This document shows, piece after piece, positions 3,233 through 64,000 of a stretch of 64,000 nt of DNA. Both the position numbers and the translations under genes were made by a program. The stretch spans positions 1 through 64,000 of the IMG/VR virus record IMGVR_UViG_3300021254_000027; one strand, written 5' to 3'. Each line of letters begins with the position of its first letter. Within the stretch, counting starts at the first letter, position 1. The notes under the pieces were generated by a model that worked only from the letters and a program-made list of their open reading frames with translations, ran no database searches and was not told the DNA's origin. This stretch comes from a virus (lineage: Duplodnaviria; Caudoviricetes).

Positions 3233-3257
3233 TTTTTTTAGAAAGTTATGGTATAAT
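3229..3257 (+). promoter_or_regulatory. sigmaA/sigma70-type promoter (extended -10)
   Basis: TTGATT-17 nt-TATAAT with TG at -15/-14. Confidence 0.75.
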
Positions 3258-4723: not shown

Positions 4724-7700
4724 ATGGCATTTTTTAACGATCATAATCATACCGTTTATAGTAATCTCCGTCTTGTTGACTGTATTAACAAGCCCAAAGC
4801 CCTAATTGATGAAGCGATTAAATTAGGGCTTAGTGGTATAGCTATTACAGATCATGAAGCATTGTGTTGTCATATTGAAGTGAATCAATATGCACAGAAA
4901 TTGCGGGAAACTAATCCGGATTTTACAATAGCGCTTGGAAATGAAATTTACCTTGTAAATAAACGAGAAAATGGACAGAAGTATTATCACTTTATCTTAA
5001 TAGCCAAAAATGCACGTGGGCATCAAGCTCTTCGAATGTTAAGTTCAAAAGCTTGGTATAATGGCTATGAAGATAGAGGTTTTCGTGTACCTACTTTAAA
5101 AAGCGAAGTTGAAGAGGTCATGAAAGATTATAAAGGTGATGTTATAGCGACTACTGCATGTATGGGCGGCGAAGCATCAACTTTATTGATGGAAAAGAGT
5201 ATGCGAATGAGCGTGGGCATTAATGATGATCAAGTCCATGCAGATTTGCATAAATTCATTAACTGGTGTATTGATGTTTTTGGTAAAGATGATTTTTATA
5301 TTGAGTGCGCGCCGAGTCTGAATAAAGATCAGATCTTAGTAAACCGCATGTTAAAAACTTATATCGCGGATGTATATGATTTAAAAATGATACCTGGTAC
5401 TGATAGTCATTATCTGCGTAAGGATTTGCGGTTGGCGCATAAAACTTATCTTAATTCAAAAGATGGCGATCGAGAAGTCGATGAATTTTATGAGTTCGCT
5501 TATCTAATGGATGAAAACGAAGTGCGGCGATTGCTCCATCATAGTTTTGAAGATGTAAAAACTATAGATTGGTTATTTGCAAATACTGAACTTATGCGGC
5601 AGAGTATTGAATTTTATAGTCTAACTCGTCCGCAAAAGATTCCATTGGTTGATGTAGAAATGCCGACTGGTTTTTATGCGATGGACCCTGAGCGTTATCC
5701 GACTCTATGGCGGATTAATTGTGATGGTAATGCGCAAGAAAAACGTTGGCTTCATGATTGTATGGATGGTCTAGAGCGGCATGGAATTGCCGAAGACCGT
5801 CAACCCGAGTATATGGATCGTTTAGAGATTGAAGCTGATGTAATTGATTTCATTGGCAATCGTCTCGGAAATTGTTTGTTCGCATATTTTAATACTTTTA
5901 AGCATTATATTGATTTGTTCTGGGAGTGTGGTTCAACTGTTGGGCCTGGTCGAGGTAGCGCTACTGGTTTTCTTTCCAATTATCTTTTGGGTATTACTCA
6001 ATTGGATCCTATCCGCTGGGGATTGCCTTGGTGGAGATTCCTTAACAAAGAGCGAGCTGAATTACCTGATATCGATATTGACCTTGCCCCAAGTAAAAGA
6101 CCTCTTATCTTTGAACGAATCAGAGAAGAGCGCGGAGAACTTGGATGCGTACAAGTTGTAACTTTTGGAACTGAAGGAACCAAAAGTGCTATTCAAACGG
6201 CATGTCGTGGTTATCGGTATCAAGATGAGGATGGTAGAGAATTATACCCGAATGGTATTGATAATGATGTCGCATTATATATTAGTGCATTAATTCCAGA
6301 AGAGCGTGGATTTTTGTGGTCATTTAATGATTGCATTTATGGCGATGAAAGTAAAGGCCGTAAACCGATTAAAACTTTAATCACCGAGTTAAATAAATAT
6401 CCTGGACTAGTTGATATTATCCAGAATATTGATGGTTGTGTAAAGCAACGTGGTATTCATGCGTCTGGTGTTATCTTATACAACAATGATATTTTTGATA
6501 CTGGCGCGATTATGAGGGCCCCTTCTGGAGAACTTGTTACTTGTTATGATCTTCATATGTGCGAAGCCGCCGGAGATACTAAATATGACTTTCTCGTAAC
6601 TGAAGTTTGTGACAAGATGATTCAGTGTCTTGAACTCATGAAAAAAGATGGAGTTATAGAGAACGAGAGCATTCGTCAGTTATATAATCGTTATCTGCAT
6701 CCTGAAAAAATAGACACAAACAAACCAGAAATTTGGGAACATCTGGCGGCGGGAGATATTCTCGATGTTTTCCAATTCAATAGTGGAGTTGGATTGAGTG
6801 TTGCTCGTTCCATGAAACCGCAGAACCCTCTTGAAATGACTGCGGCGAACGCTATGATGCGTCTAATGAATGAGCCTGGTGTAGAAAGTCAGCAGGATCG
6901 TTATGTTAGAATTAAAGATGGCGGAGTCGAATTGTTTGAACGAGAGATGACTGAGCATCATTTGCCGCAAAAGATGAAAGAAAGATTACATCATTATTGT
7001 GATACATATTATGGATGTAGCGCGATCCAAGAGCAAATGATGGAAATCTTGATGGATCCAGAAATCGCGGGCTTTAGTTTAAAAGAAGCTAATGATGCTC
7101 GTAAAATCGTCGGTAAAAAACAGATGTCTCGTATCCCTGAATTGAGAGCGCGATTTAATCAAACAATGTCAGAAAATCTGGCAGATTATGTTTGGAAATT
7201 AGCAGTTGCGCCACAATTAGGATATGCGTTTAGTATTAATCATAGTCTCCCCTATAGTTTTGTAGGTATCCAGACGATTATCTTGGCGACTCAATTTAAT
7301 CCAGTATATTGGAACTCAGCTTGTTTGATCGTTAATAGTGGAGCAGTTGATCCAGAAGCGAAAGCATCTACAAATTATGGAAAGATTGCAAAAGCTGTTA
7401 ATGACATCCAGAGTCGAGGAATTAAAATCGCGCCGATTGACATTAATAAATCAGATTATGGATTTACTCCTGATGCTGAAAATAATGTAATTATGTTCGG
7501 CATGAAGGGATTATTGAATGTTGGCGATGATTTAGTCGCAGAGATAATCGCAAATCGTCCATATGAAAACTTTATGGACTTTATGAATAAGATTAAGATA
7601 ACTCGACAGCCGATGATTGCGTTGATTAAATCTGGTGCTTTTGATCATTTTGGTGAGCGCAAAGGCATTATGGCGCAGTATATTTACTTAACTTGTGATC

Positions 7701-8563
7701 GCAAGAAGAGAATTAATCTGCAAAATATGAATGGATTAATCCAGCGCAATATGATTCCTGAAGAATTAGGGCCTGCGCGATCAGTATATGAATTTAATCG
7801 CTACTTAAAAGACAAGTGTAAAAAAGGTGATAAGTTCTATATTGACGAACGTGCGTTAAATTTCATAAATAAACGTTATCCAGATTTTCCATTTGAAGAT
7901 GGACAATGTGTAAGTGCAAAAGTTTGGGATAAGATTTATCAGTCTGAAATGGATGTTATCCGTAATTGGATGAAAGATCATCAGGATGAAGTCTTATATC
8001 AAATGAATAAAGCAATTTTTATGGAAGATTGGCAAAAGTATGCGGCAGGTAATTATTCATCTTGGGAAATGGAAGTAATGTGCTTCTATTATCATCAGCA
8101 TGAACTTGCGCATGTGCAAATGGCGAAATATGGAATATCTCGATTCCAGAATTTGCCAGCTGATCCTCCTGTAATAAGTTTGTATCGTGGTAAGATTCCG
8201 ATTTACCAGTTGTCTCGTATCGCTGGTACAGTGATTGCGAAGAATAAGACAAAAGGAATTGTGACGATTTTAACTACTGATGGAGTAGTAAATGTCAAAT
8301 TTACGAAAGAATATTTTGCGATGTTCGATCGTCAGATTAGTCAAAGAGGCGCCGATGGTGTAAAGCATGTTGTTGAAAAATCTTGGTTCAATAGAGGCAG
8401 TATGATTGTTGTAACTGGATTGCGGCGAGGGGATGAATTTGTCGCCAAAAAGTACGCCAACACTCCTGGACATCAACTGTACAAAATTACTGAGGTATTT
8501 GCTAACGGCAGCATAACATTGTGTTCAGAACGAGCTCAGGGAGAGAGCGAAAATGTTGAGTAA
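4724..8563 (+). CDS. dnaE: DNA polymerase III alpha subunit (family C, DnaE-type) with PHP domain
   Basis: PHP HNHT, TDHE, TDSHY; GPGRGSA, RFLNKER..PDIDID, HASGV, KYDFL, YAFSINH; C-terminal OB fold. Confidence 0.96.
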   Translation: MAFFNDHNHTVYSNLRLVDCINKPKALIDEAIKLGLSGIAITDHEALCCHIEVNQYAQKLRETNPDFTIALGNEIYLVNKRENGQKYYHFILIAKNARGHQALRMLSSKAWYNGYEDRGFRVPTLKSEVEEVMKDYKGDVIATTACMGGEASTLLMEKSMRMSVGINDDQVHADLHKFINWCIDVFGKDDFYIECAPSLNKDQILVNRMLKTYIADVYDLKMIPGTDSHYLRKDLRLAHKTYLNSKDGDREVDEFYEFAYLMDENEVRRLLHHSFEDVKTIDWLFANTELMRQSIEFYSLTRPQKIPLVDVEMPTGFYAMDPERYPTLWRINCDGNAQEKRWLHDCMDGLERHGIAEDRQPEYMDRLEIEADVIDFIGNRLGNCLFAYFNTFKHYIDLFWECGSTVGPGRGSATGFLSNYLLGITQLDPIRWGLPWWRFLNKERAELPDIDIDLAPSKRPLIFERIREERGELGCVQVVTFGTEGTKSAIQTACRGYRYQDEDGRELYPNGIDNDVALYISALIPEERGFLWSFNDCIYGDESKGRKPIKTLITELNKYPGLVDIIQNIDGCVKQRGIHASGVILYNNDIFDTGAIMRAPSGELVTCYDLHMCEAAGDTKYDFLVTEVCDKMIQCLELMKKDGVIENESIRQLYNRYLHPEKIDTNKPEIWEHLAAGDILDVFQFNSGVGLSVARSMKPQNPLEMTAANAMMRLMNEPGVESQQDRYVRIKDGGVELFEREMTEHHLPQKMKERLHHYCDTYYGCSAIQEQMMEILMDPEIAGFSLKEANDARKIVGKKQMSRIPELRARFNQTMSENLADYVWKLAVAPQLGYAFSINHSLPYSFVGIQTIILATQFNPVYWNSACLIVNSGAVDPEAKASTNYGKIAKAVNDIQSRGIKIAPIDINKSDYGFTPDAENNVIMFGMKGLLNVGDDLVAEIIANRPYENFMDFMNKIKITRQPMIALIKSGAFDHFGERKGIMAQYIYLTCDRKKRINLQNMNGLIQRNMIPEELGPARSVYEFNRYLKDKCKKGDKFYIDERALNFINKRYPDFPFEDGQCVSAKVWDKIYQSEMDVIRNWMKDHQDEVLYQMNKAIFMEDWQKYAAGNYSSWEMEVMCFYYHQHELAHVQMAKYGISRFQNLPADPPVISLYRGKIPIYQLSRIAGTVIAKNKTKGIVTILTTDGVVNVKFTKEYFAMFDRQISQRGADGVKHVVEKSWFNRGSMIVVTGLRRGDEFVAKKYANTPGHQLYKITEVFANGSITLCSERAQGESENVE

Positions 8564-11627: not shown

Positions 11628-12160
11628 TGCGCTATGCTGGTATTATATTTAATGATACCGCCGCAGCTCCAGGAGTCTGTTTATCATTCTACACCCAAGG
11701 CTGTCCTATCCATTGCGAAGGTTGCCATAATCGAGATATGTGGGATGAAGATGGCGGCTATGAGTTTCGTCCAGAAACTTTAGATAGGATTATTTACGGG
11801 TTGCATGCTAATGGTATTAATCGAACCTTTTGCATTTTGGGCGGGGAGCCATTCTCCCCGCACAATGCTTTTTTAACTGGACTGCTAGTATCAACAGTAA
11901 AAGAAAAAAGTCCAAATACTCCTATATGGATTTGGAGCGGGTATCCTATTGAAGAGTTAGTTCATAATGGTAATAAACATGTTAGAGATGTTTTGCGGCA
12001 AATAGATGGATTAGTTACTGATCCTTTTATTCTCGCAGAACGTGATATAACTCTTAGGTTTAAAGGATCTCGTAACCAAAGAGTCTGGAAATTTGATCAC
12101 AGAAAAAAATTATGGTATAATATAGAAAAAGAAGAAGAGGAGTTCCAAGTCGATGATTGA
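11627..12160 (+). CDS. nrdG: Anaerobic RNR activase (radical SAM)
   Basis: CPIHCEGC, LGGEP, GSRNQR; coupled to nrdD. Confidence 0.95.
   Translation: MRYAGIIFNDTAAAPGVCLSFYTQGCPIHCEGCHNRDMWDEDGGYEFRPETLDRIIYGLHANGINRTFCILGGEPFSPHNAFLTGLLVSTVKEKSPNTPIWIWSGYPIEELVHNGNKHVRDVLRQIDGLVTDPFILAERDITLRFKGSRNQRVWKFDHRKKLWYNIEKEEEEFQVDD
12093..12121 (+). promoter_or_regulatory. sigmaA-type promoter embedded in the nrdG 3' end
   Basis: TTGATC-17 nt-TATAAT with TG extension, followed by a GAGGAG RBS for the 12153 gene. Confidence 0.7.
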
Positions 12161-12680
12161 AAAAGATAACGCTATCTTTATGGAACCAGACGAATATGAT
12201 GAATATCGTAAACAAAAGACACAAGAACTTCAAGAGCAATTTGAAAAGATCCGAGTTGAAAATCCTGAAAAAATCTTGGATACTACAATGTACGATTTAA
12301 ATAAAGACATTATAGCCCAGATTAAGGATATGACTCCAACCGAAATTAAAAAGCGTATGAAGTTAATTCGTTCTTGGTTATACCATGATACAGATATTTA
12401 TTATGCGCTGATCTGTTGGGACTTTAACTATATTACTATCTTCAGATTTCCTAATGAAAACTGGGATGAGCAAGTAAAAGAGATTCAAGAGATTATCACT
12501 TCACTTGGCGCAGTTAAAGCAATAGATCCTCATAATGGTGGTAAGGCGATGGACCTTCACCACATTGAAGATGAAGTAGAAAACATTGATGCTTTTGAGA
12601 TTTGGATTAAGTTAGAAGAATACCAAGAGCCTAAAATGTTTATGCTGTTCCCTTATGGAGGAGGCATTATTGAAGCATGA
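12153..12680 (+). CDS. Hypothetical protein (175 aa)
   Basis: GAGGAG RBS; overlaps neighbours; no recognisable motif. Confidence 0.8.
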   Translation: MIEKDNAIFMEPDEYDEYRKQKTQELQEQFEKIRVENPEKILDTTMYDLNKDIIAQIKDMTPTEIKKRMKLIRSWLYHDTDIYYALICWDFNYITIFRFPNENWDEQVKEIQEIITSLGAVKAIDPHNGGKAMDLHHIEDEVENIDAFEIWIKLEEYQEPKMFMLFPYGGGIIEA

Positions 12681-12931
12681 TGTGGTTTGACTATACGACT
12701 ACCGCCGGTGTACTTATTCATTATACCGGATTCGATGGTAGTGAACATGATTATAAAGCAAATTATATATTGCCGCAAGAGGTAGTTAGATTGGTTGCAT
12801 CTATTGCCGATTCTAATAATATCTCAGAAATTACCTGTGCAGGTATTGCTTATGACTTGAAAGATGCTGTTAAGCAGGAACTTGCGCGAACCTATAAAAA
12901 TACTAACGTAGTATTTAATAAAGCGGAGTAA
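12677..12931 (+). CDS. Hypothetical protein (84 aa)
   Basis: GGAGG RBS; ATGA overlap. Confidence 0.75.
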   Translation: MMWFDYTTTAGVLIHYTGFDGSEHDYKANYILPQEVVRLVASIADSNNISEITCAGIAYDLKDAVKQELARTYKNTNVVFNKAE

Positions 12932-12943
12932 AGGAGTAGAAGT

Positions 12944-13174
12944 ATGGCTCGTTACCTATTGAATGTAACTGAAAAATATCGTGTTGATACTGTTGAGGAA
13001 GCGCTTCAAATGCGCGACGAGGCGAATGATGATTTCAATTTTGAACTTCAATCATTCCAGTACGTAACTAAATTTAATAAGAAAACTGAAGAGGAATATC
13101 AAATTGTTACTCTAAAAAAAGTTATCAATGTAGAGAAAGAGCCAGCTTCTGGTGTGATGGTGCATTATGAATAA
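12944..13174 (+). CDS. Hypothetical protein (76 aa)
   Basis: AAGGAG RBS; overlaps the dUTPase start. Confidence 0.8.
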   Translation: MARYLLNVTEKYRVDTVEEALQMRDEANDDFNFELQSFQYVTKFNKKTEEEYQIVTLKKVINVEKEPASGVMVHYE

Positions 13175-13763
13175 GATTGCAGCGAAGTTTGAAAAGATTA
13201 GTAAGTATGCGGATGATAAAGACATTATATGCCCTTTGCGCAAAACAAATACCAGCGCAGGTTATGACTTTTATTGCGCAGAAGATACTGTAGTTCCATC
13301 ATATTCTTCTGCCATTACTGCGGATTTCGCAAATGATCTCGTAAAAGATATGCACTCTTATTATGAATCATTTGAGCAGTTTTTAGAAAGCCTTCCATAT
13401 GACCTTAATACTGCTGCAACACTTGTTAAGAAATATGGACACAAGATGACTCTTGTTCCTACTGGTGTTAAGTGCCGTATTCCAGATGATTATTACCTAC
13501 AGTTAAGTGTGCGCTCTAGCTTGCCGCTAAAGCACTGGTTGATTATGGGCAATGGCGTTGGGATTATAGATGCTGATTATTATAATAATAGCGATAATGA
13601 AGGCCATATATATTTTGAATTGATAAATCTGTTACCTTTTGACGTGGTTATTAAGAAGGGCGATTGTATTGGTCAGGGCGTTTTTCTACCGTATGGTGTG
13701 ACCGAAGACGATCAAGGTAACGATGTTGAGCGCACTGGTGGATTTGGATCTACCAATGAGTAA
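13167..13763 (+). CDS. dut: Trimeric dUTPase with an ~40-aa insertion
   Basis: Motifs SAGYD, RSS, GIIDADY, IGQG, RTGGFGST. Confidence 0.95.
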   Translation: MNKIAAKFEKISKYADDKDIICPLRKTNTSAGYDFYCAEDTVVPSYSSAITADFANDLVKDMHSYYESFEQFLESLPYDLNTAATLVKKYGHKMTLVPTGVKCRIPDDYYLQLSVRSSLPLKHWLIMGNGVGIIDADYYNNSDNEGHIYFELINLLPFDVVIKKGDCIGQGVFLPYGVTEDDQGNDVERTGGFGSTNE

Positions 13764-14250
13764 AACAATTCTTGCGCTAGATTAGGCCACCAAAACATCA
13801 GGGTGGTCTATCTGGCAAGATGGCACCCTGATCGAATATGGTCATGTAACATTTGATTAGGAGGATCCTTTTATCCGCAATAATAAACTTTGTTCATGGC
13901 TTGGTAACATGATTGAAACACGAGATGTAGATGAAGTTGTGATTGAAGATATACAAATGCAAGTTAACAATGTTTTAACATTTTAGCGGCTTGCATAGCT
14001 TCAAGGTGCAATTATTGATATGTTAATTGATTGGCATATTGATTATAAAATTATTAAACCATCTGAATGGCGAGCTGCATGTAATTTCTTGAAAGGTCAA
14101 GATAAGCATCGTGCTTCATAGAAAAAAATTGCACAAGATTGGGTTTTGTCAACATATGGACGTAAATGTACCCAAGATGAAGCAGATGCAATTTGTATTG
14201 GACATGCTGTGGTTCAATAGGAAGATAGTGAATTAAACTGGGAGGATTAA
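13756..14250 (+). CDS. ruvC: RuvC-like Holliday junction resolvase (164 aa, six in-frame TAG=Gln; absent from the ORF track)
   Basis: MSKTILALD*ATKTSGWS...VVIEDIQ...TF*RLA*LQGAI...PSEWR...K...DEADAICIG. The acidic RuvC-type residues are present. TAGs at 13783, 13858, 13984, 13996, 14119, 14218; stop TAA 14248-14250. Confidence 0.88.
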
Positions 14251-14251
14251 T

Positions 14252-14647
14252 ATGGAGTGGGCAGTTATTATAAATGAGATATTTACTGTCGTATTAATTC
14301 CTTTGCTTGGTTTGGTAGCAAAATATTTTATTGAATTTTTGCATGCCAAGAGGGATGAAGCAAAGAATAAAATTGACAATAACACGTTGAAAAAGTATAT
14401 AGATATGCTTGATGCAACTATTACTCGTGCGGTTATTGCCACAAATCAAACCTATGTTGATGCTTTAAAAGAGCAGAATGCGTTTGATAAGGAAGCACAA
14501 GCTAATGCTTTAAAGAAGACTTACGATGCAGTTATGGCGGTTTTAACTACTGATGCTGAAGCGTATTTAAGTAATGCTATCGGTGATCTTGAGAGTTATA
14601 TTAAGACTGCGATTGAAGCTACGGTTAAAGACCAAAAAAAGGTATAA
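14252..14647 (+). CDS. Putative holin, LL-H-like
   Basis: Single N-terminal TM helix, then V.ATNQTYVD.LK...FD.EAQ...IE..V pattern; GGAGG RBS. Confidence 0.6.
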   Translation: MEWAVIINEIFTVVLIPLLGLVAKYFIEFLHAKRDEAKNKIDNNTLKKYIDMLDATITRAVIATNQTYVDALKEQNAFDKEAQANALKKTYDAVMAVLTTDAEAYLSNAIGDLESYIKTAIEATVKDQKKV

Positions 14648-14693
14648 AAAAAATTGGGGCGACTCTTAATTGAGTCGCCCCATTGTTTTTTTT
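14646..14693. terminator. Bidirectional intrinsic terminator between the convergent arms
   Basis: A-run, perfect stem TGGGGCGACTC / GAGTCGCCCCA (14655-14682), T-run. Confidence 0.92.
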
Positions 14694-15219
14694 AATTATG
14701 AACAGGTAATGCTCTAATTCTTTCATCCCAAAGATCCATATGACCATTGCCGCCTAGTTTATGATAAACCGCGAGTCTCTCATTATATTGAATCAATTCA
14801 GCATGAGTTATATAGCCATGTTCTATGAATGTATTACATGCAGTAATTAAATTTTGTAAATGTGCGTCCAACACACCTTGTCGGACTGCATCAATATCTT
14901 CTGCATTCTTTAATTGCTAATTATGAAGAGCAGAAATATCAGTCTGCCACTTTTCATCCATGGCATTTAATTTTGCTAAAATCTAGGTATCCATAGCATT
15001 GGATTGCTCTTGAATTTTAGCAAAGTGCTTGCCGCAAATTTCTTCATGAACATTAGAAGAACGAGCGATACGTTCCCATTCTTCTTTTTTCTATTGATCA
15101 TTACCTTTTTTAATTGGGTTTATTAATCGTGCAGCAATTAACCCAACTATTGCTGCACATATAAATGGAATGATCCATTTAACAAATGTTTCTAATATTA
15201 ATGGTCCTGCAACCGCCAT
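14692..15219 (-). CDS. Membrane-anchored, possibly lysis-associated protein (175 aa, 3 TAG)
   Basis: GAGGAG RBS; MAVAGPLILETFVKWIIPFICAAIVGLIAARL TM helix; coiled region; C-terminal YHKLGGNG motif of the kind seen near phage lysis genes. Confidence 0.7.
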
Positions 15220-15238
15220 CACAGTCACTCCTCAGAAG

Positions 15239-16084: not shown

Positions 16085-17080
16085 TTATTCCTCCTCATCT
16101 GGAATATTCACGCCATCAGCAATTTCTTGTTCAGTACGTTCTTCGCCCTCAATAGGCTCTTCATCTTCAATTTGAATATCTGTATTATATACTGCCCAAG
16201 AAGTTTCTGTATCATCAGTAGTAGGTCGCAATGTATTATTATCTAAATGGCATTCATATTCAATACCATCTAACATTACATGATCTCCATACTGATAAAT
16301 TTGGCCCTCTTGCCACTCAGGAATAATTTTATTCCCTTCAGCATCAATTTCTGTCCAAGTTAATCTTGTACCAGGAGTTGTAGTATTAGTATAGAAATTA
16401 GAGAAATAATATTTCCCTTCATACTCTACACAAGCGCCATATTCATATGACTGTCGTGGAACCCAAGTTGGAAATACTGGCACTCCTGTAGAAGGCTGTG
16501 GAGTAGTTAAATTTTTCCAAGGCGCGTGTGCTACATTTGGAGGATAACAGTTATTAACACTTTCTGATTCATAAATAAAATCTCCATATTTAACTTGATC
16601 TCCTATATCATATCCAGATTTATCATCTTCTGGTGGATACCATGGAGGAATAAAATTAATTTTTTCAAACTTATCAGAAACAGAAGGAGCATTTAAAGTA
16701 TCGGTTAAATGATTTAAAAGAACTTTATATAAATATCCTTTATGTCTATAACGCATTCCAGCAATAACATTTAATCCTGGGCGCCAAGCAGGATAAAGAA
16801 TTAAATGCGCAACAGCTTCTTCATCTGAAAAATCTGAGAGTAAAATATTTAATTCTTCTCTTGTTGCTTTTGCATTTACAAATGAAATTCCAGAATCTTC
16901 AAAAGCAATTTGAGCCATTGATTTTTGGAATAATTCATTGCCAACTCTATATAGCCGAAAATAATCGATCGCCGCAGCTATACTGTCTCCATTATAATAT
17001 GTTGCACTATCAGGCAAATCCATGAACGCAACACTTAAAGACGCGCGATCCTCATTTGATATTGATAATAAAAATCCCAT
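16085..17080 (-). CDS. Protein with about 4 CBM5/12 (ChtBD3-like) carbohydrate-binding repeats (331 aa, no TAG)
   Basis: Repeats W....Y..GD.V.Y.G..Y (e.g. YDIGDQVKYGDFIYES, WQEGQIYQYGDHVMLDGIEYEC); GGAGG RBS. Confidence 0.75.
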   Translation of the reverse strand: MGFLLSISNEDRASLSVAFMDLPDSATYYNGDSIAAAIDYFRLYRVGNELFQKSMAQIAFEDSGISFVNAKATREELNILLSDFSDEEAVAHLILYPAWRPGLNVIAGMRYRHKGYLYKVLLNHLTDTLNAPSVSDKFEKINFIPPWYPPEDDKSGYDIGDQVKYGDFIYESESVNNCYPPNVAHAPWKNLTTPQPSTGVPVFPTWVPRQSYEYGACVEYEGKYYFSNFYTNTTTPGTRLTWTEIDAEGNKIIPEWQEGQIYQYGDHVMLDGIEYECHLDNNTLRPTTDDTETSWAVYNTDIQIEDEEPIEGEERTEQEIADGVNIPDEEE

Positions 17081-31138: not shown

Positions 31139-33136
31139 TTATTCTTTTTCTAAGTTCTGAAGCTGATTAAAGCTATAAGCAGGAGTCGTAACTCCATTCT
31201 CTGTACGTGTAGCATAACGCTGATATGTAGTACCACGCTGAGAAATCTGTACAACATATACATAAAGGTCAAACTTCTGACCAACATACATTTGATTTAC
31301 ATTAGCAATAGAGAAATCTGCTGTACCATTAGAAATGAATTGCTGAGACGCAGCAACAGGATAAATCTTAGTATCATAACCCTGATTCTCATTAGGAACC
31401 TGAGCAGCTACCTGCGCGAACATCTGATATTCAGCATCTTCATAAGGCATATTACCAATAGTAACATGGAACAAATTCTTATCAGAAGCATCTCGAGCAA
31501 TACTAATCTGATCACGTCTTAATTCAACCGGCATTGCTTCAATTTTAACTTCAGCACTAGTAGCGTGCGTTACAGTATTGTTCTTAGTATTAGTTGCAAT
31601 GCAATAATATACACCGCGGCCATTAGTCTTATTAGTATTACCTTGACTTGGATCATAAGTAGCTTCAGTGGCACCTGCAACAGGAGTTACAACACCAGTA
31701 AGGAAGTCCTTATGATACCATTGATATGTTAAAGCGCCATTAGCATCATCAACACTAATAGACATTGTAGAAGCATCAGTGTCAAGATACGCAAGGCCTG
31801 GAAGTGTGCGGCTATTAACAACAATGTCATGCGCAGGCTCAACATTAACAATTGCGCTATAAACATAGCGGATACCGCCCTGTGCATTTTCATTGCCAAT
31901 AAAGCACTGATATACGCCAGGAACATTGGTCTTTAAAGTACGATAAGTGGTTCCATCAGCAGGAGAAGCTACATAGTAAGTAACTCCATCAGCAACTTCT
32001 TCTTCTTCTGCAAGAACGTACTCGTCATCAACAAGTTTATACCAACCTTCCGCAGCAGGATTTACTCCTTCAGAAATAGTAGCAACAGCGTAAGTTGATT
32101 CAACTGGATCACTAAAAGTAATAGCTTTATTATTAGCGAGTTCATAAGTAATAACATTAGGAAGAGTTGCATCATTTACGACATTAGCATTTGGCTGGTC
32201 AATCATGATACTGTTCCAATTCCAATTAAATACTAAACGACCGCCATCTGGACTTACTGCATTTACAGTTAAAATAGTACTGTAATCATCTTCGTCTCCA
32301 TCATCATCAAAATCAATATCTCCCTCAGGAAGATTCAAGGTGATACGAGCAGGAGCCGCAGTTAAACTATTAATAATTGGACTATAAATTGCGCGAGAAT
32401 AAATAACGTCATTATAAGATTCACGTTCAGCTGCGTCTTTATCAAGAGTAAGAGTATTCTTAACAGCGACTTTAGCAGTTTGAGTCTCCAAACGGAAGTC
32501 CACTAAACCGCTCGCATTTACGTGTTCAAACTCAAAGAAAAATTCAATATTACCAGCAGCTGCAGTAGCTTCTTGAGAGATAGCCCAACCAAGATATAAA
32601 ACGTCACCAACAGCATATTTAACAACTGGAGTGGTCTTATAGAATTTAGTTTCACCCTTTAATCCAGCATTATACCAGAAAATATTGATATTGGTGCTTT
32701 CAAGTAAGTCAACTACATCATAAAAACGAGGCATATTGAAGAATAAAATTTCTGCCAAGTGATCGCCCAAAACACCAACGCCATTTTTATTGAACTCAGG
32801 TGGGACTGTAATTACACGAGTGTTAGTGTCAATGGTGAAATCAGGCTCATCAAAAGGAGCATGAATATAATCATACAAACGAGCCTTACCAGCAGCATTA
32901 TCAGTCTCAGTAATCTTTTTAACGACACGAACGTAAGTATTTAAAAGGTTAATGTCGTCTAAAAGTTTGCCGCTAATTAACTTGCCATTAGAATCAAAAT
33001 TAGCATCGACTTGTGCCTGAGATTCATCTAAGATATCTACATCGATGCCGACATCTGCGGCGTCACGAACAAACTGAACAGCAAATGCCTGATCACTAGC
33101 AAATTTAGTGCGGAGATCGTCTAAAGACATATACAT
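31139..33136 (-). CDS. Structural protein with a BppU_N-like domain and Ig-like domains (665 aa, no TAG)
   Basis: F.IDT.TR.I.VP...GDHLAE..FF..PRFYD..DL; Ig-like LTYQWY...GAT.ATY...G.YYC.ATN. Confidence 0.8.
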   Translation of the reverse strand: MYMSLDDLRTKFASDQAFAVQFVRDAADVGIDVDILDESQAQVDANFDSNGKLISGKLLDDINLLNTYVRVVKKITETDNAAGKARLYDYIHAPFDEPDFTIDTNTRVITVPPEFNKNGVGVLGDHLAEILFFNMPRFYDVVDLLESTNINIFWYNAGLKGETKFYKTTPVVKYAVGDVLYLGWAISQEATAAAGNIEFFFEFEHVNASGLVDFRLETQTAKVAVKNTLTLDKDAAERESYNDVIYSRAIYSPIINSLTAAPARITLNLPEGDIDFDDDGDEDDYSTILTVNAVSPDGGRLVFNWNWNSIMIDQPNANVVNDATLPNVITYELANNKAITFSDPVESTYAVATISEGVNPAAEGWYKLVDDEYVLAEEEEVADGVTYYVASPADGTTYRTLKTNVPGVYQCFIGNENAQGGIRYVYSAIVNVEPAHDIVVNSRTLPGLAYLDTDASTMSISVDDANGALTYQWYHKDFLTGVVTPVAGATEATYDPSQGNTNKTNGRGVYYCIATNTKNNTVTHATSAEVKIEAMPVELRRDQISIARDASDKNLFHVTIGNMPYEDAEYQMFAQVAAQVPNENQGYDTKIYPVAASQQFISNGTADFSIANVNQMYVGQKFDLYVYVVQISQRGTTYQRYATRTENGVTTPAYSFNQLQNLEKE

Positions 33137-55174: not shown

Positions 55175-55561
55175 TTAGCCCTCCTCGTCAATAATAAGCT
55201 CCATAGCTTCAAGCTGCTTAGGCGTGAAATTCAAATCCTCAATCAAAGATACAGGGATCATACGCAAGGCGACATCAGCAGTAAACTTATTAAGTTCTGC
55301 ACGAGCCTCTTGACATTCCTGCTCTTTACCTTCAATAATCTTAAAGATGCCAGGCTCAGTTTGGATAAACTGGCCATTTTCATCTGTCTGTAAATACTTC
55401 TGCGCGAATGCGCGCTCTTGTTCAATATAAAACTCAGTTTCCTTAGCAAGCATTGCACTGTTTTTTGCAATCAAAAGGCTAAGCTTGAAAGGAAGTTCCT
55501 TATCCTTTAAAGTATCGAAAACCTCAGTAAGGTCATTAATCTGTCGAAAATTAAGTTCCAT
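55175..55561 (-). CDS. DUF1617-like small phage protein (128 aa, no TAG)
   Basis: LPFKLS..IAKN...L..E...R...Y...DENG pattern; AAGGAG RBS. Confidence 0.65.
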   Translation of the reverse strand: MELNFRQINDLTEVFDTLKDKELPFKLSLLIAKNSAMLAKETEFYIEQERAFAQKYLQTDENGQFIQTEPGIFKIIEGKEQECQEARAELNKFTADVALRMIPVSLIEDLNFTPKQLEAMELIIDEEG

Positions 55562-55585: not shown

Positions 55586-58500
55586 TTAAGTTGATGGTGT
55601 TGTAGGAATAGCAGAAGTTTTAATTTTAATTGTTGTAGACCCATTATTATTGGTTCTATCATAACCATCATATTTTTGTCCAACAGTACCATTATTAATA
55701 GTAAGAGTAAACGTACTGGTTGTTGAATTAATTTTTCGCTCTGCTAATATAATGCTACCATCATAAATACGAGCAGTAATATCTGCTCTAGTTACCGTAC
55801 CATTACTCCAACTTAAAGCTCCACCAGTTAAAGTTAGTGTTAAAGTTTTAGTTTTAGTACCGGTAAAAGAAGTACCATTATCATCTAACGCAATAGTACA
55901 AGATGTACTCCCAGCAGTGCTTTTAAGCGAGAGGCCCTTAAACCACGTCGTATCTTTCATATCAAAAGATGCCTCATCCGACGTGGTTTTATTAAAATCC
56001 GCATCACCTAGAGTTAATGATACTGTTGATCCACTTATATTGAATGTGGGTTTATGAGTATGCTTTAATGAAATATCCGCACTAGATGAACCAATCTTAT
56101 AAGTTAAAGTTCCAGCACTAAATTTCATACCTGAAACTCTTGAATTGATACCGTCTACAAGATAAGACAATGCTTGATTTATACGTAAATTCGCACCCAA
56201 GCCTAATCCTGCAGCAACACCTGTTAAATTACCCATACCTCCACTAATAGTACCAAAACTAGCTCCAACAGGAATATCAGTTCCATTAAATTCTAAAACT
56301 GTTGTTCCACTACCAGGAGTAGATTTTCCAGTAATGGTATTTCCACCATCACTATCTGCGCCACCAGTAACTCCAAAAGTAACATAAGGTAATTTTAATT
56401 GTAACTTAGTACCTATGCCTAAAAAACTATTACCAGCACTTGCAGTAACTCCAACACCACCGTATAAAGTATATCCATTTAATAAATTGCCCATAGCACC
56501 GCCAAGAGCGTTACCACCGCCATAGGCACCGCCAGAGCCTCCTGAAGATCCTCCACCAACAGATTTGATCTATGCGGCTAACATATTTACCATTTCCCAA
56601 ACCCAAGATTTAGTCGCCAATTCATCGCCTTTTACTTTAATTTCATTACAATAAATTGTTCCAGAATTAATATTATTAGCAGAAATTAAATCGCCCCACA
56701 TATTCCATCTACGAGTAGTAGTGCCTAATGTAGCACGAGTAATATTCTAATCATGCAAAAAAGCAGTTCCTGTTGGGAAAAATACTAATCCATAATCATC
56801 AGAGGTTACTGGAGTTACTGACATTGTATCTGTATAAATGGTTTCTGCATTAAGATCTTGTATATGATTAATAATAGCAGTCAAAACATTTTCAATACAA
56901 GTAGTTAATCTATCAGTACTATATAAAGACAAAACAATATTTTGTAAAGTGGTTAAAGAAGTATTTAAAATACTTTCTGTTAATTGTATTAAATTAACAG
57001 ATTGCATAATCTTAAAAACTTGCTATGCTAAATGTTCATGATCATTTACTTTATCTAAATTTGTAATAAAAATAGTGCGTAAATTATTAATAGATGAAAG
57101 TTCTGCATCAATCTAATTATTAAATTGAGCTAAATGTAACTCATTGACACTATTATCAATAATATCATTAGCAATTTCTATGCCATTATGATTAATCACT
57201 GTTGTTAATTGATTCTTTACATTAGTTAATAAAGTTTCTAAATTATTATTATTATATGTTTCATATACTGTATTATACTAATCGTAATCATTTGCTGTTA
57301 CTGTAATACTTCGAGTTTCTACTACAAGAGTATATTGAATAGTCGTTGTTTCTTCTCCATTATTATCAATTATTAATTCTTGTTCCATTTGAGGCAAAAT
57401 AGCATAAGTAGAATTAATAGTATATGTATTTGTTCTAGTATTATATTCAACATTATTGCGTGTAAATGTTTCAATCTAACTATCAGTAAAAGGTGTTGTT
57501 GATGTATATTCTTTACTTTCAGTTAATGTTGTACTTAAAGTGTTTGTCCAACTTAAATAAGCATCAGTAAATCTGATCCAATCATATCCAGCGTTATAAA
57601 AATCCATATAATCAGAATATAGTTTTGTAACCGCAGTTTGTAAATTCCTTACTGTATTATAATAATTCTAATATTCATCGATTTCTTCTTGATTAGGATT
57701 AGGCTAATCAGTGCTAATATCATAAACAGTACCTTTTTCAACAGTTAAGCCATCATCTAATAAACCAGTTACAATAGAAATACCAATATTTTCATTATTA
57801 CTATCATTACGACCCGAATCAAAAATTTTAAATTCATTTGGATTTAATAATGACTATCCAACTACTTGAATATTAGAAGTCTAACTCCAAGTATCTTCAA
57901 TACCAGTTAAAACAGCATCTGTTGCACTCTTATAATAATATTTATATCTTGCGCCACTAATTTTTTTAGTAATCTATTGATTTTCTGTATAAACACCAAG
58001 TAAATTACTAAAATTATCTTGTACATTTGTAATACCCTACAACCAAAATCCGCCAAGATTTAAAGTTCCTCCAGCAGTTCCAGTTAAACCATTCACTGCC
58101 ATTAAAGAGATAGTACCATCACCATTAATTACTGTTGCGCCCTTACCAAAAACTAATTTCTAATTTTTAGCATCAATTATAATAGAATGGTAAATATTTG
58201 CATTCGCGCCATCTGGTGGGTCAATATGCTCTGGATCATCAGGATCATAAGGTACAGTTCGCAATGAATTTTTATCAATTATCCATCCTCCGATATTACC
58301 TTTAGTAGATAATAAAGTACCATCCATCCGTACTCCAAATCGAATTTCAGCATCACCTGCATAAATTGCGAATCCACCACGAGATCCAATATATGCTTCA
58401 TTATAAACAATTGGGCCATCATTAATACCATTTGGCAATAACTAAATTGTTTTATTCTTAATAGGAATAATAGTAGATAAATCAGTATCATCAATTTGAT

Positions 58501-61500
58501 TACTAAAAATCTAATTACTTATTCCCGGATCACCTAGATATATTATACCAGAAGAATTTTTCTATGTCAAGCCAAAATCTCCAATATGCCAAGGTGAAGT
58601 TGAACCAATTGTGCCTGCGCGAGCAGTTAAATATCCTTGCCAATTAACGCTAAATAAAGGTTTAGTATTCGGTGAATATCCAGCAAAAATAGCATATTTA
58701 TTAGCATCATTCAAAATAACTTCATTAATTCGTTTATCTTTTATCTAATCTAAAGAATTAGCAAGATCATCATATAAACTATTACAATCTTTTATATCTT
58801 GATTATATTTAGCATCTAATTGCTTTTTCTTTACATAATACTCATCATAATTACTATTTTCTTTTAACCAAAGAGCACCTGCGGCAAGCATTTCATCATA
58901 CTGTCTGGTATAACCATCTAAATGATAATTATAATACGCTCGTGCCCATTGAGAAAAATCTGTTAACCAAGCAACAGACAAACACTCATCATGACTAGTA
59001 TCTAAAACGGTATGCAGATATGAAGGAGCTCCAAAAGCTTGCCACTATGCCATCCAAGTTTCATTAGAATCTTTCCCGCCATCTGACGAACCATAATATG
59101 TATTAGCAATATAAGTACATTCTTCGCTAAATAAAAATGGCTGTGTATTAAATGATTCAATACGCATTCCCTTTCCAGAAGTATTATATTCTTGATGTAC
59201 ATGAAGTGTTGTTTTATCAGCGCTCTAAACATCTACGTAATAATAAATCCGCGTGCTATTATCATTGCCATAAGAATCTGACCATAAAGCATTAATTACA
59301 TAACGACAAGCAGTTTGAGCACCGCCTATATATGCGAGACTAGGCTACCCATTTCGCCAATGAAAATGCGTACCAGTTCGCTCTTCTTTTGAGAAATACT
59401 CAATTAATAAAGATTCTAATAATTCTTTAGATACCATATCTCCATCAGTTTTAGATATCGCTTCATTAATAGCTAAAGATACGTTATCTGCCCAAGCAGC
59501 TTGCATATAATAATGTTCAGGATCATACTAAAAAATATGCGTATAATATGATCCTATAAGATTACGTAATTTTTGTAAATAATTTAAATATAAAAGGGTT
59601 AAATCCCGTTCACGTTCTCTATCTAATATGCTTTTTTTAATATTAATTTCTGTATTTAACTATGTTAATTCACTTAGATCATTTGTAGAATACCCTAAAT
59701 ACATGTAACGACTATCTAATAAAGTATCACCAGTATGTTTTTGATATAATCCTTGATTGCTAATCATCCAATTACCAATTTTACCATATCGAGCAATAAT
59801 TCCACCAGAAGTCAATACTCCATTATTGGGGTCAACAATAAAATAATCTTTGGTTTCATCATTTAAAAATTTATTTGCCCAAGCTGTTGATAACTCTAAA
59901 CTATCTACTCCCTCTAATGGAGCCTAAGAGCTTTTTTTAGCTTCTGCATATAAAAAATATTGTGAATAGCCTAAATGATTTGTTAAATCAATAGAACCAT
60001 CAGAAGAAATATTATATGTAATTGGATCTAAATTAATATACGCGGTTTTATCAACATTACTAATTAATGATTGATTACCATTAAATACAATTTGTCCCCG
60101 TCCAGATTTACCAATAAATCCAGTGCCATTTGTACGGAATCCAAATACTTGTCCGCCTTTTTCTAATCCATATATTCCAGGAATATCAAGAGATGCATCA
60201 CCATAATCAGACCAGTTACCCATAACTACGCCAGTAAAAGCATTATTATTATCTTTCGCTCCGGCGCTAATCATTTGCGCAAGAACCGCATTTTGAGCCT
60301 CATCTATAGTTAATTTACCATCCCAAGAATTAAGTAATGATGAACTATAAAGATTGCGGCTAAATGGTATAGCCTATTTAAATGTAACACCATTTTCTGT
60401 CCATTTCAAAATGGTATAATAATATTTCATATTATCGTCCCAATACCAAGGACTATCATTAGTAGTATTGTGCTTATATGGATCTAATGAATATTCAATA
60501 TGTCCAGGCAAATAATTTGCTGCCGCTTTACTTAAATCAATAAAACGAGAATCTCTTAAGTTCGCTGCAGCAGCTCTAATACTATCTAAATCACCGACTA
60601 TATCTTGCTCTAAAATATTAGCAATAGTAGCGTTATATTCATTTTGAATCATTTGTTCTAATTCTACATAGGTAGAAGAACTGCTTCCAGAAAATGGGTT
60701 TTTATTAAAAATCCAAGTTTCACTTCCATCTTCTGCGGCTTCTTTTGCATAATAAAGTAAATAATTATTATTCGTTGTAATCGCTTGTGAAAAGATTGGA
60801 GTTTCTTTTAAAGCTAAATAATCTGGCGTGGTTAATTGATTCCACGTACCAGCATTGTTTTTATACTAAATTAACTCCCAAGTTGGATATACATCTACAA
60901 AATTTTGTCCAACAGTTTGAGTTACTGAAAAAGTACCAATATTACTTAACGGCACTGATCCATCTGATTTAAACTCTACACGATTTGGACAGCTAACACT
61001 ATATTCCGCCGCTGCATCCGCGTCTGAGATTATTTTAAATCCTGCGACATTAGATAATATATAATCTGCTGCGCCTAAAACAGTTACCTTAAAAACTGGC
61101 GGCATATCATTGCGTAAATAACCAGTGATTTTATTACCAATAAAGAACGATCCATTTCCAATTGTCCAATTCTATTTATTATTACCTTCTTCATCTTGGA
61201 GTTCTTCTTCAGCGCTCTCAGTAATAATAGTTGGAGAAAGACATTCCCAAGAAAAAATATATTTACTGTTCTAAGATTCTTCCGCAGTTTTTCCTTTTTC
61301 TACAACATTCGCTACAATAGAAAATTTTTGATTCTAAACTAAAAATTCTCCTTCTGGTGCGAGTTGAGCAAATACAATAGTATATTGACTACCCATACTA
61401 CCAGCTTGTCCAAAATGTAACTCAATTTGTGGATGATAAGTTTTACCTTTACGAGTTACAATCGCACCAATTGTATTATTTAAATAAGCTAAATCTAAAT

Positions 61501-64000
61501 AGCTTTTAATCTTAAATTTACGAGTAATCGCACGAATACGATCATTATATAGAGAACTAGCTCCTTCTAAAATAGGCGCTAATACGCTATTTGATAATTC
61601 GGCATCGGTAGGGACTGCCCACTAATCAATCATACTTAATGATGTAGGTGGTTGCCAATTAACTTCTACTCCATTATCATCTGGATCATAAGTCATTGGA
61701 GAATAATTGCCAGTATCATTATTACGAATCCAAACCTACACATAATACCAATAATCATTATATCTTACATTGTCTTTATCTTTAAGAACATAATTATTTT
61801 CATCATAAACATAAAAATCTCGTAAGCTATTATCTTCTACTATATTAGTAATACCATTTTCATCAGTTTGTGCCCGCAATAATCTAAATGTAATTTCATT
61901 TAAACTATCAAGACTGCTAGTTTCAATAGAAGAATCTACATTAGTAAAAATAAGAGGCTCGGTTTCATATGGCACATCATTTACAGTTACTATTGCTTTC
62001 CATTGTTCGCGTGCGCGAGAAGCATTAGGAGTTACTCTATAAGTATCAAAATCTTCTCCAGTAGTAGACTCTAAATATTTCCAATTTAATCCGCCTTGTC
62101 TCTCAGCTAAGACGCTAGTATCTTGCAAACATCCATACTCATAATGATACCATTGAAGCTTAGCTCCTACAGCATCTTCCCAATATTCAAAAGAAGATAA
62201 ATCGTTATCATTTTTCTTTGCATAATGAGTAATTAAAATTGCTCCAGCATCAGTTAAATGTACCCAAGCAAATTTTAAAGTTTTTTCAGTTAATAACCAT
62301 TCATATCCAGGCTGTTCCGCATATTTATTTGTTATTTCTTTTATTTTTGCACTTTTTTCTACTGTATTTAAAGTCGAATCATTCTAAATGCTTAATATAG
62401 CTTCTTGATAAGTGCTATATTCTTGGGTATAAGTCAAAGCATCTGTACCGTATTTAATATCATCATAAGTATATAAAAATACTCGATCAGTAGTGCATTC
62501 ATCTGTTGTTAATCCCAATAGTGCAGATAAATTACTTACTTGAATATTAGATGGAATATTTTCATAAGGTATTTTCTATCCATAGACGTCCCAAAAATCA
62601 TGGTCTTGCCAAAAGAAAACTCTAATTGATTCAAGAGTAAGCATATTAGAAATATCAAAAATCTTCTATTGAATTGTAGGCTCATAAAATCCATAAGTAT
62701 TACCATACATATCTTCATTAGTAAAATAAAGAGTCTGAATTGTAGATACAGATTTTTCTTCTTCAGTTGGACGAGTTTTCCCTTTTAACTCAATACGTAA
62801 TCCATATCTTCCTCGCGCAGGACGATATTTTGACAATAAGGTTTTAAAATTTGCCGAAATCCCTAATTTAGTTTCAGCTAATGGGATAGTAGGATTTTCA
62901 TTATCCCACTTCCATAAAAAATTTTTATTGTCTACATCTAAACTAGTCGCCTCATAATAATCATTGATTGATTGATTATATGCGGCGACAGTAGAAGAAT
63001 ATGCTTTGTTAATTGGATCAGTATATTTATCATATACAGATTGTTCATAAGTTTTTAATAAATTATATTCTTCTTCAGTCCAATAATAATCAGTATCAAT
63101 ATGAGCATCTTCTAAATACTAATCAAACATATTTTCAAATTCGATGCTCGTCGTATCTGCATTATTTAAAACTTGCCCCAAAGCATTTGTGTATAAAAAG
63201 TCTATTAAAGAAGTAAAAGCCTTTTCATAATTTGTTGGTTCTGATTCTGTGCCATCAAGAGAATTGTACTATAACTAAAGTTCATTAATTCTTTTATTAT
63301 GCTATTCAATCAATTGATCTATCTGAGCCTTACGTTCTTCAGTCGTTAAAGATGTATCTTGAGCAATATCCTATAAAGAATTACGATATTGTTTTTCGGC
63401 ATCTAAAATATTTTCTTCTAACTCTTTAACTTTTGCTACAGTTAAATACATTGCACTCTACTCAGGGCTATAAAAGTTTTTTGTCGTCCAAGAAGTAGTC
63501 ACATCATTTAAATGAGAAGATGCAATGTAAACTCCTCCATATCGATTATAATGAGATTCAATTGAACCCTATAGTCTTTGATGATATCTATTATACACAC
63601 TTAAAATATTCTAATATGTTGAAATTAATGAATCATCATATAGATTTTTTAAAGAATCTAACTAATTTATATAATCTTGTTCATTTTCAGTCTTACATCC
63701 ATGTTCTGGTTTATTGGCCAAATAACCTTTTGATGTAAAAGTCGAATCGTGTGTTAAATCTTCTAAGCCGACAAATCTATCAAAAGGCATTTTGAAATTA
63801 AAATTGTAAGTTGCTGCTTCGGTGCCAGCATCTACTTTTCTGCCAATTATATATTTTTGTTTAGTAAAATCTCCCATTGGAACCATTACGTAAACGACTT
63901 CGTTTTCATAATAAGTTGCAGTATCTTGAGTATACGCATCAAATTTACCATTTTCATACTCTACTTTATAAATACCTTCACTCTTCCGAGCAGTAGAAAT
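55586..64000 (-). CDS. Giant tail tip/central fibre protein, start outside the window (>2804 aa, many TAG)
   Basis: Nine track fragments (63662, 61736, 60866, 60374, 59924, 58745, 58160, 56747, 55586) share one frame. Spot checks of the gaps found only TAG. AG.KD.NN.FTGVVMG...GFIGKSG.GQI motif; Gly-rich C-terminus. Confidence 0.8.

Follow-up and report, generated by a model that had tools for sequence, protein, structure and literature searches.

An amber-rich RuvC-family resolvase gene at the end of an otherwise TAG-free replication arm in a code-15 phage

Can a reassigned stop codon hold back a single phage enzyme whose gene lies among replication genes that need no reassignment? The question is raised by a RuvC-like Holliday-junction resolvase gene in the stretch of DNA analyzed here, from a gut phage of the Caudoviricetes (the window, 64,000 nucleotides, positions 1 to 64,000 of the IMG/VR virus record IMGVR_UViG_3300021254_000027), which carries six in-frame TAG codons on the same strand as a run of replication genes with none. 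Recoding of TAG to glutamine (genetic code 15) has been proposed to regulate the late and lytic genes of gut phages, and partially recoded phages, whose replication genes keep the standard code while the late genes are recoded, have been published (Borges, 10.1101/2021.08.26.457843; Yutin 2021, PMC7886860). The temporal code switch itself is a published hypothesis and not a measurement. With a probability of about 0.6, we think that this RuvC is transcribed with the standard-code block and translated with the virion class, so that its synthesis would be possible only once amber suppression is active.

Translation with TAG as glutamine gives one open frame of 164 amino acids on the plus strand of the window (13756-14250), with TAA as its end codon. 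TAG occupies codons 10, 35, 77, 81, 122, and 155 and accounts for 6 of the 14 glutamine codons, the remainder being 8 CAA and no CAG; the first TAG lies directly 3′ of the codon for the catalytic Asp9 (motif LALD-TAG-AT). The chance of 164 codons without TAA and TGA is about 6e-5 at the local base composition. None of the 12 other plus-strand genes between positions 375 and 14647 has an in-frame TAG, and their 153 glutamine codons are all CAA or CAG, so that the difference from RuvC (6/14 versus 0/153) is highly significant (Fisher p = 1.1e-7). The glutamine count of the initial annotation of this DNA, with its first TAG at codon 10 beside a catalytic Asp, is thus matched exactly, as is its description of the plus-strand neighbors as free of TAG. 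RuvC has the highest TAG density among the genes of the window (3.66 per 100 amino acids), the minus-strand genes having mostly 0.4 to 1.9. CAG is missing from the TAG-bearing genes and freely used in the TAG-free ones, which is the pattern that replacement of CAG by TAG would produce. Within its own genome, RuvC shows the codon usage of a late gene in a standard-code neighborhood. Strand-specific mutation bias was ruled out as the cause, since RuvC lies on the same strand as the TAG-free genes, and an apparent TAG in a listed open reading frame at 12093-12680 was discarded as an artifact of start choice, the triplet lying 5′ of the real ATG at 12153.

The product is, judging by its profiles and its predicted fold, an intact RuvC-family Holliday-junction resolvase, which agrees with the resolvase identity put forward in the initial annotation. 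The Pfam family RuvC (PF02075) matches residues 6-148 of the 164 with 25.2 bits against a cut-off of 22.2, and three PHROG resolvase families match as well (best, phrog_827, 3.9e-20). Searching solved structures with the single sequence returned chance matches only, while a profile of 18 orthologues recovered Escherichia coli RuvC (1HJR) over its full length at 1.1e-7. Residues D9, E64, D141, and D144 are invariant across these 18 orthologues and align with E. coli D7, E66, D138, and D141. The AlphaFold2 model (mean predicted local distance difference test score, 89.8; predicted template modeling score, 0.86) has only RuvC structures as its top 11 Foldseek matches (1HJR, 6LW3, 4LD0, 7W8D, and 4KTW among them), with template modeling (TM) scores of 0.70 to 0.78; they are 0.75/0.78 against 1HJR and 0.76/0.78 against the RuvC of phage bIL67 (4KTW). 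The gene is under purifying selection and is no pseudogene: the 56 nucleotide differences from a relative of 89% identity change only 15 codons, and they introduce no TAA, TGA, or frameshift. A clade of relatives (L007, L008, L015, L016, L018, and L027, at about 5761-6000 of each locus) has a longer RuvC of 241 to 248 amino acids, with an N-terminal domain of about 75 amino acids that resembles a zinc ribbon (CPxGH...CxxC) and holds TAG codons too in the recoded members.

For relatives of the locus, IMG/VR was scanned twice and the JGI metagenomes once, which yielded 88 loci; these form 38 clusters when grouped at 80% identity of RuvC, and 28 of the clusters are TAG recoding. The second, profile-based scan of viral contigs recovered the same loci as the first, and among GenBank phages blastn found no match to the 3.7-kb region. 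The replication arms of the relatives widely close with NrdD, NrdG, small genes, dUTPase, and RuvC in this order, RuvC always stands at the boundary with the TAG-rich arm, and the 8-nucleotide overlap of dUTPase and RuvC is kept in many lineages. In the 28 TAG-recoding clusters, TAG makes up 36.9% of the RuvC glutamine codons (113/306), compared with 7.6% (98/1295) in the upstream genes of the same strand, which bears out the enrichment relative to the operon that the initial annotation had proposed to look for in orthologues; in the remaining, mostly virion, genes the share is 23.2% (342/1476). Lineage by lineage, the RuvC share is the higher one in 20 of 24 comparisons with the upstream genes (sign p = 0.0015, Cochran-Mantel-Haenszel odds ratio 7.2) and in 20 of 26 with the other genes (p = 0.009, Cochran-Mantel-Haenszel odds ratio 2.0), with flank gene calls that are automatic in the relatives and p-values that are generous, as the lineages share ancestry and several TAG positions are common to them. 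The twofold excess over the late genes leans towards a preference for TAG in RuvC over neutral tolerance.

The recoded pattern of RuvC recurs in 25 clusters, with 5 to 10 TAGs in many lineages and extremes of 10 among 12 glutamine codons (L027) and 8 among 13 (L001), while the RuvC of standard-code relatives lacks TAG. In 13 recoded lineages, the adjacent dUTPase has TAG at just 2 of 88 glutamine-type codons, both near the N terminus. TAG falls at 29 columns of the RuvC alignment, many of them lineage specific, and columns of invariant glutamine (in the motifs IQ, LQG, and CTQDEAD) are included. At codons 81, 127, and 155, relatives of 87 to 89% identity have TAG in one and CAA or CAG in another, while each of them keeps 5 or 6 TAGs. 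From these swaps and from the TAGs in invariant columns, TAG in RuvC is evidently read as glutamine. The integrity of the gene, this reading of TAG, its exclusivity to RuvC within the arm, and its recurrence in relatives are all direct observations.

Co-transcription of RuvC with dUTPase is the best reading of the unit. It is plausible given the 8-nucleotide overlap between the dUTPase stop codon and the RuvC start (ATGAGTAA), a conserved sigma-A-type promoter-like element within nrdG (12093-12121), the lack of a conserved internal promoter, and a single terminator, the one at 14655 being the only one of the unit. RuvC would then plausibly be the last gene but one of an operon for replication and nucleotide metabolism that extends from 12093-12121 to 14655-14682. 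The promoter-like block is near-invariant in an alignment of the window with L001 and L002, while the flanking codons vary, the RuvC proteins of these two relatives being only 54 to 68% identical to that of the window; elements of the same class are found at 3249 and 4682, ahead of the helicase and polymerase genes. Upstream of RuvC, the consensus scan gave just one further promoter-like site, at 13558-13586, which was rejected, as its -35 box varies among relatives and its -10 box coincides with the conserved DYYNN codons of dUTPase. A late promoter for RuvC, the finding that the initial annotation had named as speaking against its proposal, thus has an unconserved site as its sole internal candidate. 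A 386-nucleotide contig from a metatranscriptome library of animal gut matches 13475-13860 with 100% identity and so runs from dUTPase into RuvC, past its first two TAGs; this is a weak indication, since contigs are no proof of a single transcript and DNA carry-over is possible. Logan contigs provided five short pieces within 11.5-13.9 kb and none at 14.1-17.3 kb or over most of nrdD, the missing cover being uninformative. Hairpins predicted around the first RuvC TAG (z = -3.5) and over the start of the downstream holin-like gene (z = -1.9) were dropped, as they have neither conservation nor covariation in the relatives.

Whether the unit is early is a separate matter. A block of about 9 kb at genome positions 96500-105542 (L030:2500-11542) has about 50% G+C, against about 36% elsewhere, and contains at least 10 near-perfect TTGACA-17-TGnTATAAT promoters with TTAACA-type boxes before and small open reading frames after them; the contig of the record ends inside this block, at an ATG. 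The true early region is probably this GC-rich, promoter-dense block. Several of its open reading frames end in TAG with a back-up TAA 4 to 30 codons further on, an arrangement that fits TAG as a stop at that stage and that we take as only a hint. The start that the initial annotation gave to its sigma-A operon, near 12120, stands as a near-invariant promoter-like block, while its early status is at most presumed, since similar elements precede virion genes and the densest promoter cluster lies at 96.5-105.5 kb.

By its mode of translation, RuvC falls into one class with the virion genes, although it is located in the standard-code block and probably transcribed with it. Were release factors to terminate at UAG, the ribosome would halt at codon 10 and free a peptide of 9 residues. 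Full-length RuvC would need six successive suppression events, so leaky expression would be negligible; with six UAGs in series, the yield would drop steeply under weak suppression and stay reduced under partial suppression. The enzyme would be off during genome replication, as phage RuvC cuts forks and other branches besides Holliday junctions, and would be made when concatemers require debranching for packaging. In this scheme, the timing of suppression and the adaptive value of the gate are what we infer. Of the translationally gated early gene described in the initial annotation, what holds is that RuvC is the sole TAG-bearing gene of the arm and that its orthologues are enriched in TAG, whereas the early timing and the temporal switch stay hypotheses.

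Several points, besides the generous p-values, weigh against this gating. At 43%, the TAG share of RuvC does not significantly exceed that of the late arm of its own genome (149/540 glutamine codons, p = 0.23). The virion arm has similar TATAAT-ATA...TAG elements near 58.5, 79.1, and 94.7 kb, and with sigma-A-like elements ahead of virion genes the promoter sequence gives no temporal class. TAG could accrue neutrally, by drift from CAG, in any gene that is unneeded before suppression, and the present sequence data fit a gate and a tolerated change alike. Last, neither ARAGORN (run with default settings, with introns, and with a relaxed threshold) nor Rfam RF00005 detected a credible tRNA in the 105.5-kb record, which is rated 61% complete, the relaxed run giving 45 matches that all lie in coding DNA and of which none has the anticodon CUA; the suppressor tRNA of this phage is assumed, and probably lies in the missing part of the record. 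Complete relatives (142 to 181 kb, G003-G005 included) have 13 to 34 tRNAs each, and G003 codes for a 93-nucleotide tRNA with anticodon CUA (L037:13-105) beside a tRNA-Gln(UUG).

Other explanations of the same codons have to be weighed against the gate. Under the standard code, the gene has six in-frame stops, as would a decaying pseudogene with nonsense mutations, but these are TAG only and never TAA or TGA, no frameshift accompanies them, they fall at invariant glutamine positions in a gene whose four catalytic residues are kept in 18 orthologues, the differences from close relatives are mostly synonymous, and the same pattern is repeated in 25 clusters; we regard decay as effectively refuted. 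RuvC could also be a plain late gene at the end of the plus arm, driven together with the holin-like gene by a late promoter in dUTPase, with its TAGs as ordinary late-gene drift. Its constant place at the boundary with the TAG-rich arm would fit, as would L004-L006, where a homologue of the gene at 14692-15228 of the window, with TAG codons, comes next after RuvC on its strand, and the late arm has sigma-A-like elements of its own. The candidate for such a promoter is the site at 13558-13586, which is present in the window but has the unconserved -35 box and the coding -10 box already described; the dUTPase overlap kept in many lineages and, weakly, the RNA-library contig that bridges the junction also speak against separate transcription, and we consider this account unlikely.

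The TAGs might instead lower the dose of RuvC and not set its timing, with inefficient suppression keeping the yield of a dangerous nuclease low. TAG-free and CAG-rich genes of the virion arm suggest that TAG usage also tracks the required amount of protein: those at 31139-33136 (18 CAG) and 55175-55561 (6 CAG) of the window have no TAG, and neither have genome 80311-81426, a virion structural protein gene (phrog_2729, 11 CAG), and genome 86524-87363 (15 CAG), though the high abundance of these TAG-free virion proteins is presumed. RuvC is also richer in TAG than the average late gene across lineages, by the odds ratio of 2.0. Attenuation alone, however, leaves the zero TAG of every other low-abundance enzyme of the arm unexplained, and it is compatible with timing, as both effects arise from the same codons; as a replacement for the gate it seems improbable to us. 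Least likely, decay apart, is that the TAGs act on the gene downstream, with termination in RuvC uncoupling translation or causing polarity and so silencing the TAG-free holin-like gene as a lysis timer. Just 1 nucleotide after the end of RuvC the holin-like gene starts, and its ribosome-binding site (GGAGG) falls within the 3′ part of the resolvase gene; lineages with the long RuvC have a TAG-free phrog_1401 gene overlapping the RuvC stop codon; and strongly recoded genes on a shared transcript have been suggested to amplify the block (Borges et al., 10.1101/2021.08.26.457843). With a holin-like gene next in line, the timing of more than lysis that the initial annotation claimed for the switch is not cleanly separable from lysis. 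RuvC is nevertheless rich in TAG where the holin-like gene is located elsewhere, on the other strand (L004, L006, L025, and L026), the holin-like gene has only 4 glutamine codons, which makes its lack of TAG little informative, and the hairpin over its start is unconserved.

The features of the unit are listed in Table 1, together with TAG-bearing nuclease and methyltransferase genes of the relatives.

Table 1. Features of the RuvC unit and TAG-bearing DNA-cutting or DNA-modifying genes in replication arms of relatives (window positions, except where a locus label precedes them)
Feature	Position	Strand	Basis or remark
Sigma-A-type promoter-like element (TTGATC, 17-nucleotide spacer, TG-n-TATAAT)	12093..12121	+	Consensus scan; inside nrdG 3′ end
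Hypothetical gene, 175 amino acids, first of unit, 0 TAG	12153..12680	+	ATG overlaps nrdG stop codon
Two small hypothetical genes, 0 TAG each	12677-12931, 12944-13174	+	Gene table
dUTPase, 0 TAG	13167..13763	+	PF00692 2e-17, phrog_135
RuvC, 164 amino acids, six TAG read as Gln	13756..14250	+	Pfam, PHROG, profile, fold
RuvC TAG triplets	13783-85, 13858-60, 13984-86, 13996-98, 14119-21, 14218-20	+	Code-15 translation
Holin-like protein, 131 amino acids, N-terminal transmembrane helix, 0 TAG	14252..14647	+	phrog_13712 'holin' 8.5e-28
Bidirectional intrinsic terminator, 11-bp GC-rich stem, T-runs on both strands	14655..14682	.	Boundary of plus arm and TAG-rich minus arm
GIY-YIG endonuclease-like, about 330 amino acids, 4-11 TAG	L008:3015-4028, L016:3512-4507, L027:2991-3980
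HNH endonucleases with TAG	L006:2443-3048, L146:4299-5063		L006 gene inserted in nrdD
DNA methyltransferases with TAG	L017:1663-2586, L125:3620-4366

The plus arm codes for a Toprim primase-like protein, RecJ, a superfamily 1 helicase, a polymerase of PolIII-alpha type, guanylate kinase, NrdD, and NrdG. At its end, after NrdG, come three small genes without assigned function, dUTPase, RuvC, and the holin-like membrane protein; the 175-amino-acid product of the first small gene gave no family match. The strong terminator divides this arm from the converging, TAG-rich virion arm. A gene without assigned function on the minus strand at 14692-15228 of the window (phrog_4105/4257) bears TAG and always adjoins RuvC. 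Its homologues (L004:6485-7027, L005:6486-6941, and L006:6539-7069) show that in several relatives it lies downstream of RuvC on the same strand, and given this opposite orientation, the arm boundary has been inverted around it. Within the virion arm, the genes at window 16085-17080 and genome 85417-86502 are two more that combine 0 or 1 TAG with a strong preference for CAG among TAG-rich neighbors.

The giant TAG-rich open reading frames of this phage invite a crAss-like label, which we rejected. Crassvirales are recognized by a podovirus gene set, a PolA or PolB polymerase, a giant virion RNA polymerase, and Bacteroidota hosts largely without Shine-Dalgarno sites, whereas this phage has a polymerase with PHP, pol3_alpha, and HHH domains, a 4755-amino-acid tape measure, and strong Shine-Dalgarno sites, with AAGGAGG-type ribosome-binding sites ahead of 45 of 54 genes. 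This polymerase, a replicative enzyme of bacterial PolIII-alpha type, is encoded at window 4724-8563 and has a finger domain in addition to the three just named. The tape measure is a single open reading frame on the minus strand (genome 64210-78477, L086:210-14477) with 119 in-frame TAGs; its N terminus matches tape measure proteins (phrog_4211, 1e-51), and its length is extraordinary for one. The window has 3 perfect TTGACA-17-TATAAT promoters where chance would give 0.16, and together with the Shine-Dalgarno sites they point to a host that is probably a low-GC bacterium using such sites, so that the appeal to sigma-A in the initial annotation was reasonable. One perfect promoter, with an extended -10, lies on the minus strand at window 58542-58570, inside the open reading frame of 2766 amino acids at 55586-63886; the TAG-free phrog_1401 gene (55175-55561) lies about 3 kb downstream of it.

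RuvC has company among the TAG-bearing genes of the relatives' replication arms. The other annotated ones are mostly DNA-cutting or DNA-modifying enzymes (Table 1), and their neighbors lack TAG. In L026, recoding extends to nrdD itself, so that the boundary between the codes is not absolute. On the genome studied here, a 391-amino-acid gene of phrog_3314 on the minus strand (genome 92452-93627, L029:14452-15627) adjoins the terminase large subunit gene and has a weak match to endonuclease VII (phrog_1035, 1e-4); the packaging module may contain in it a second enzyme that resolves branches. A wider proposal can be made, which we hold as tentative and on balance doubt: positive selection would have favored the amber codons of the resolvase as a timer, the moment at which replicating DNA may be cut and debranched for packaging would depend on the code switch instead of transcription, and all enzymes that cut or modify DNA within the standard-code replication modules of these phages (RuvC, HNH, GIY-YIG, and methyltransferase) would be under the same gate. 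If true, recoding would be a general checkpoint of genome processing, beyond the control of lysis and virion synthesis.

The case extends the functions that are preferentially recoded from lysis and tail genes to DNA processing. For annotators, it means that a lone code-15 gene may sit in a standard-code block, where code callers that work block by block would cut it short. For the proposal that recoded phages use the genetic code as a clock, RuvC offers a compact test case: it is small and soluble, its activity is easily scored as DNA breaks or junction cleavage, it shares its operon with TAG-free genes, and it holds 5 to 10 TAGs in many lineages.

Compared with known systems, this RuvC is a well-conserved new example of a published idea and no new mechanism, and it should not surprise a specialist. 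In TAG-recoded crAss-like phages, the preferentially recoded genes are those for amidase, spanin, tail tube, and one unknown family, and the replication machinery keeps the standard code (Borges, 10.1101/2021.08.26.457843). The phage studied here is similar in that its replication genes are compatible with the standard code, its virion genes need read-through, a few families are preferentially recoded, and a complete relative has a tRNA with the anticodon CUA; it differs in having a recoded RuvC inside a standard-code operon, and the recoding papers that we searched make no mention of RuvC or a resolvase. The closest precedent is found in the Agate phages, in which an early gene holds a TGA-recoded group I intron endonuclease whose synthesis is proposed to be delayed until late (Borges, 10.1101/2021.08.26.457843). 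Both are DNA-cutting enzymes in early or replication DNA with in-frame reassigned stops, but the Agate enzyme is a selfish homing endonuclease, recoded at TGA in another clade, while RuvC is a conserved, syntenic resolvase that benefits the phage and is recoded at TAG in many lineages.

The premise of the initial annotation, that resolvases debranch DNA before packaging and are harmful to replicating DNA, is found in the literature: the RuvC proteins of the lactococcal phages bIL66 and bIL67 nick replication forks, break chromosomes when expressed, and are thought to clear branches before packaging (PMC3864405), and the main role of T4 endonuclease VII is the resolution of branches at packaging (PMC3016281). 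The lactococcal enzymes (4KTW) have the same fold and the same acidic catalytic residues as the RuvC of the window. They differ in sequence, with about 20% identity, and their genes, which use the standard code, are not known to us to have a translational gate. The same job is done in T4 by endonuclease VII (gene 49), whose gene is also carried on an early transcript with a masked ribosome-binding site, so that translation is delayed. The folds of endonuclease VII and RuvC are unrelated, however, and T4 achieves its delay with RNA structure and a late promoter and not with the genetic code.

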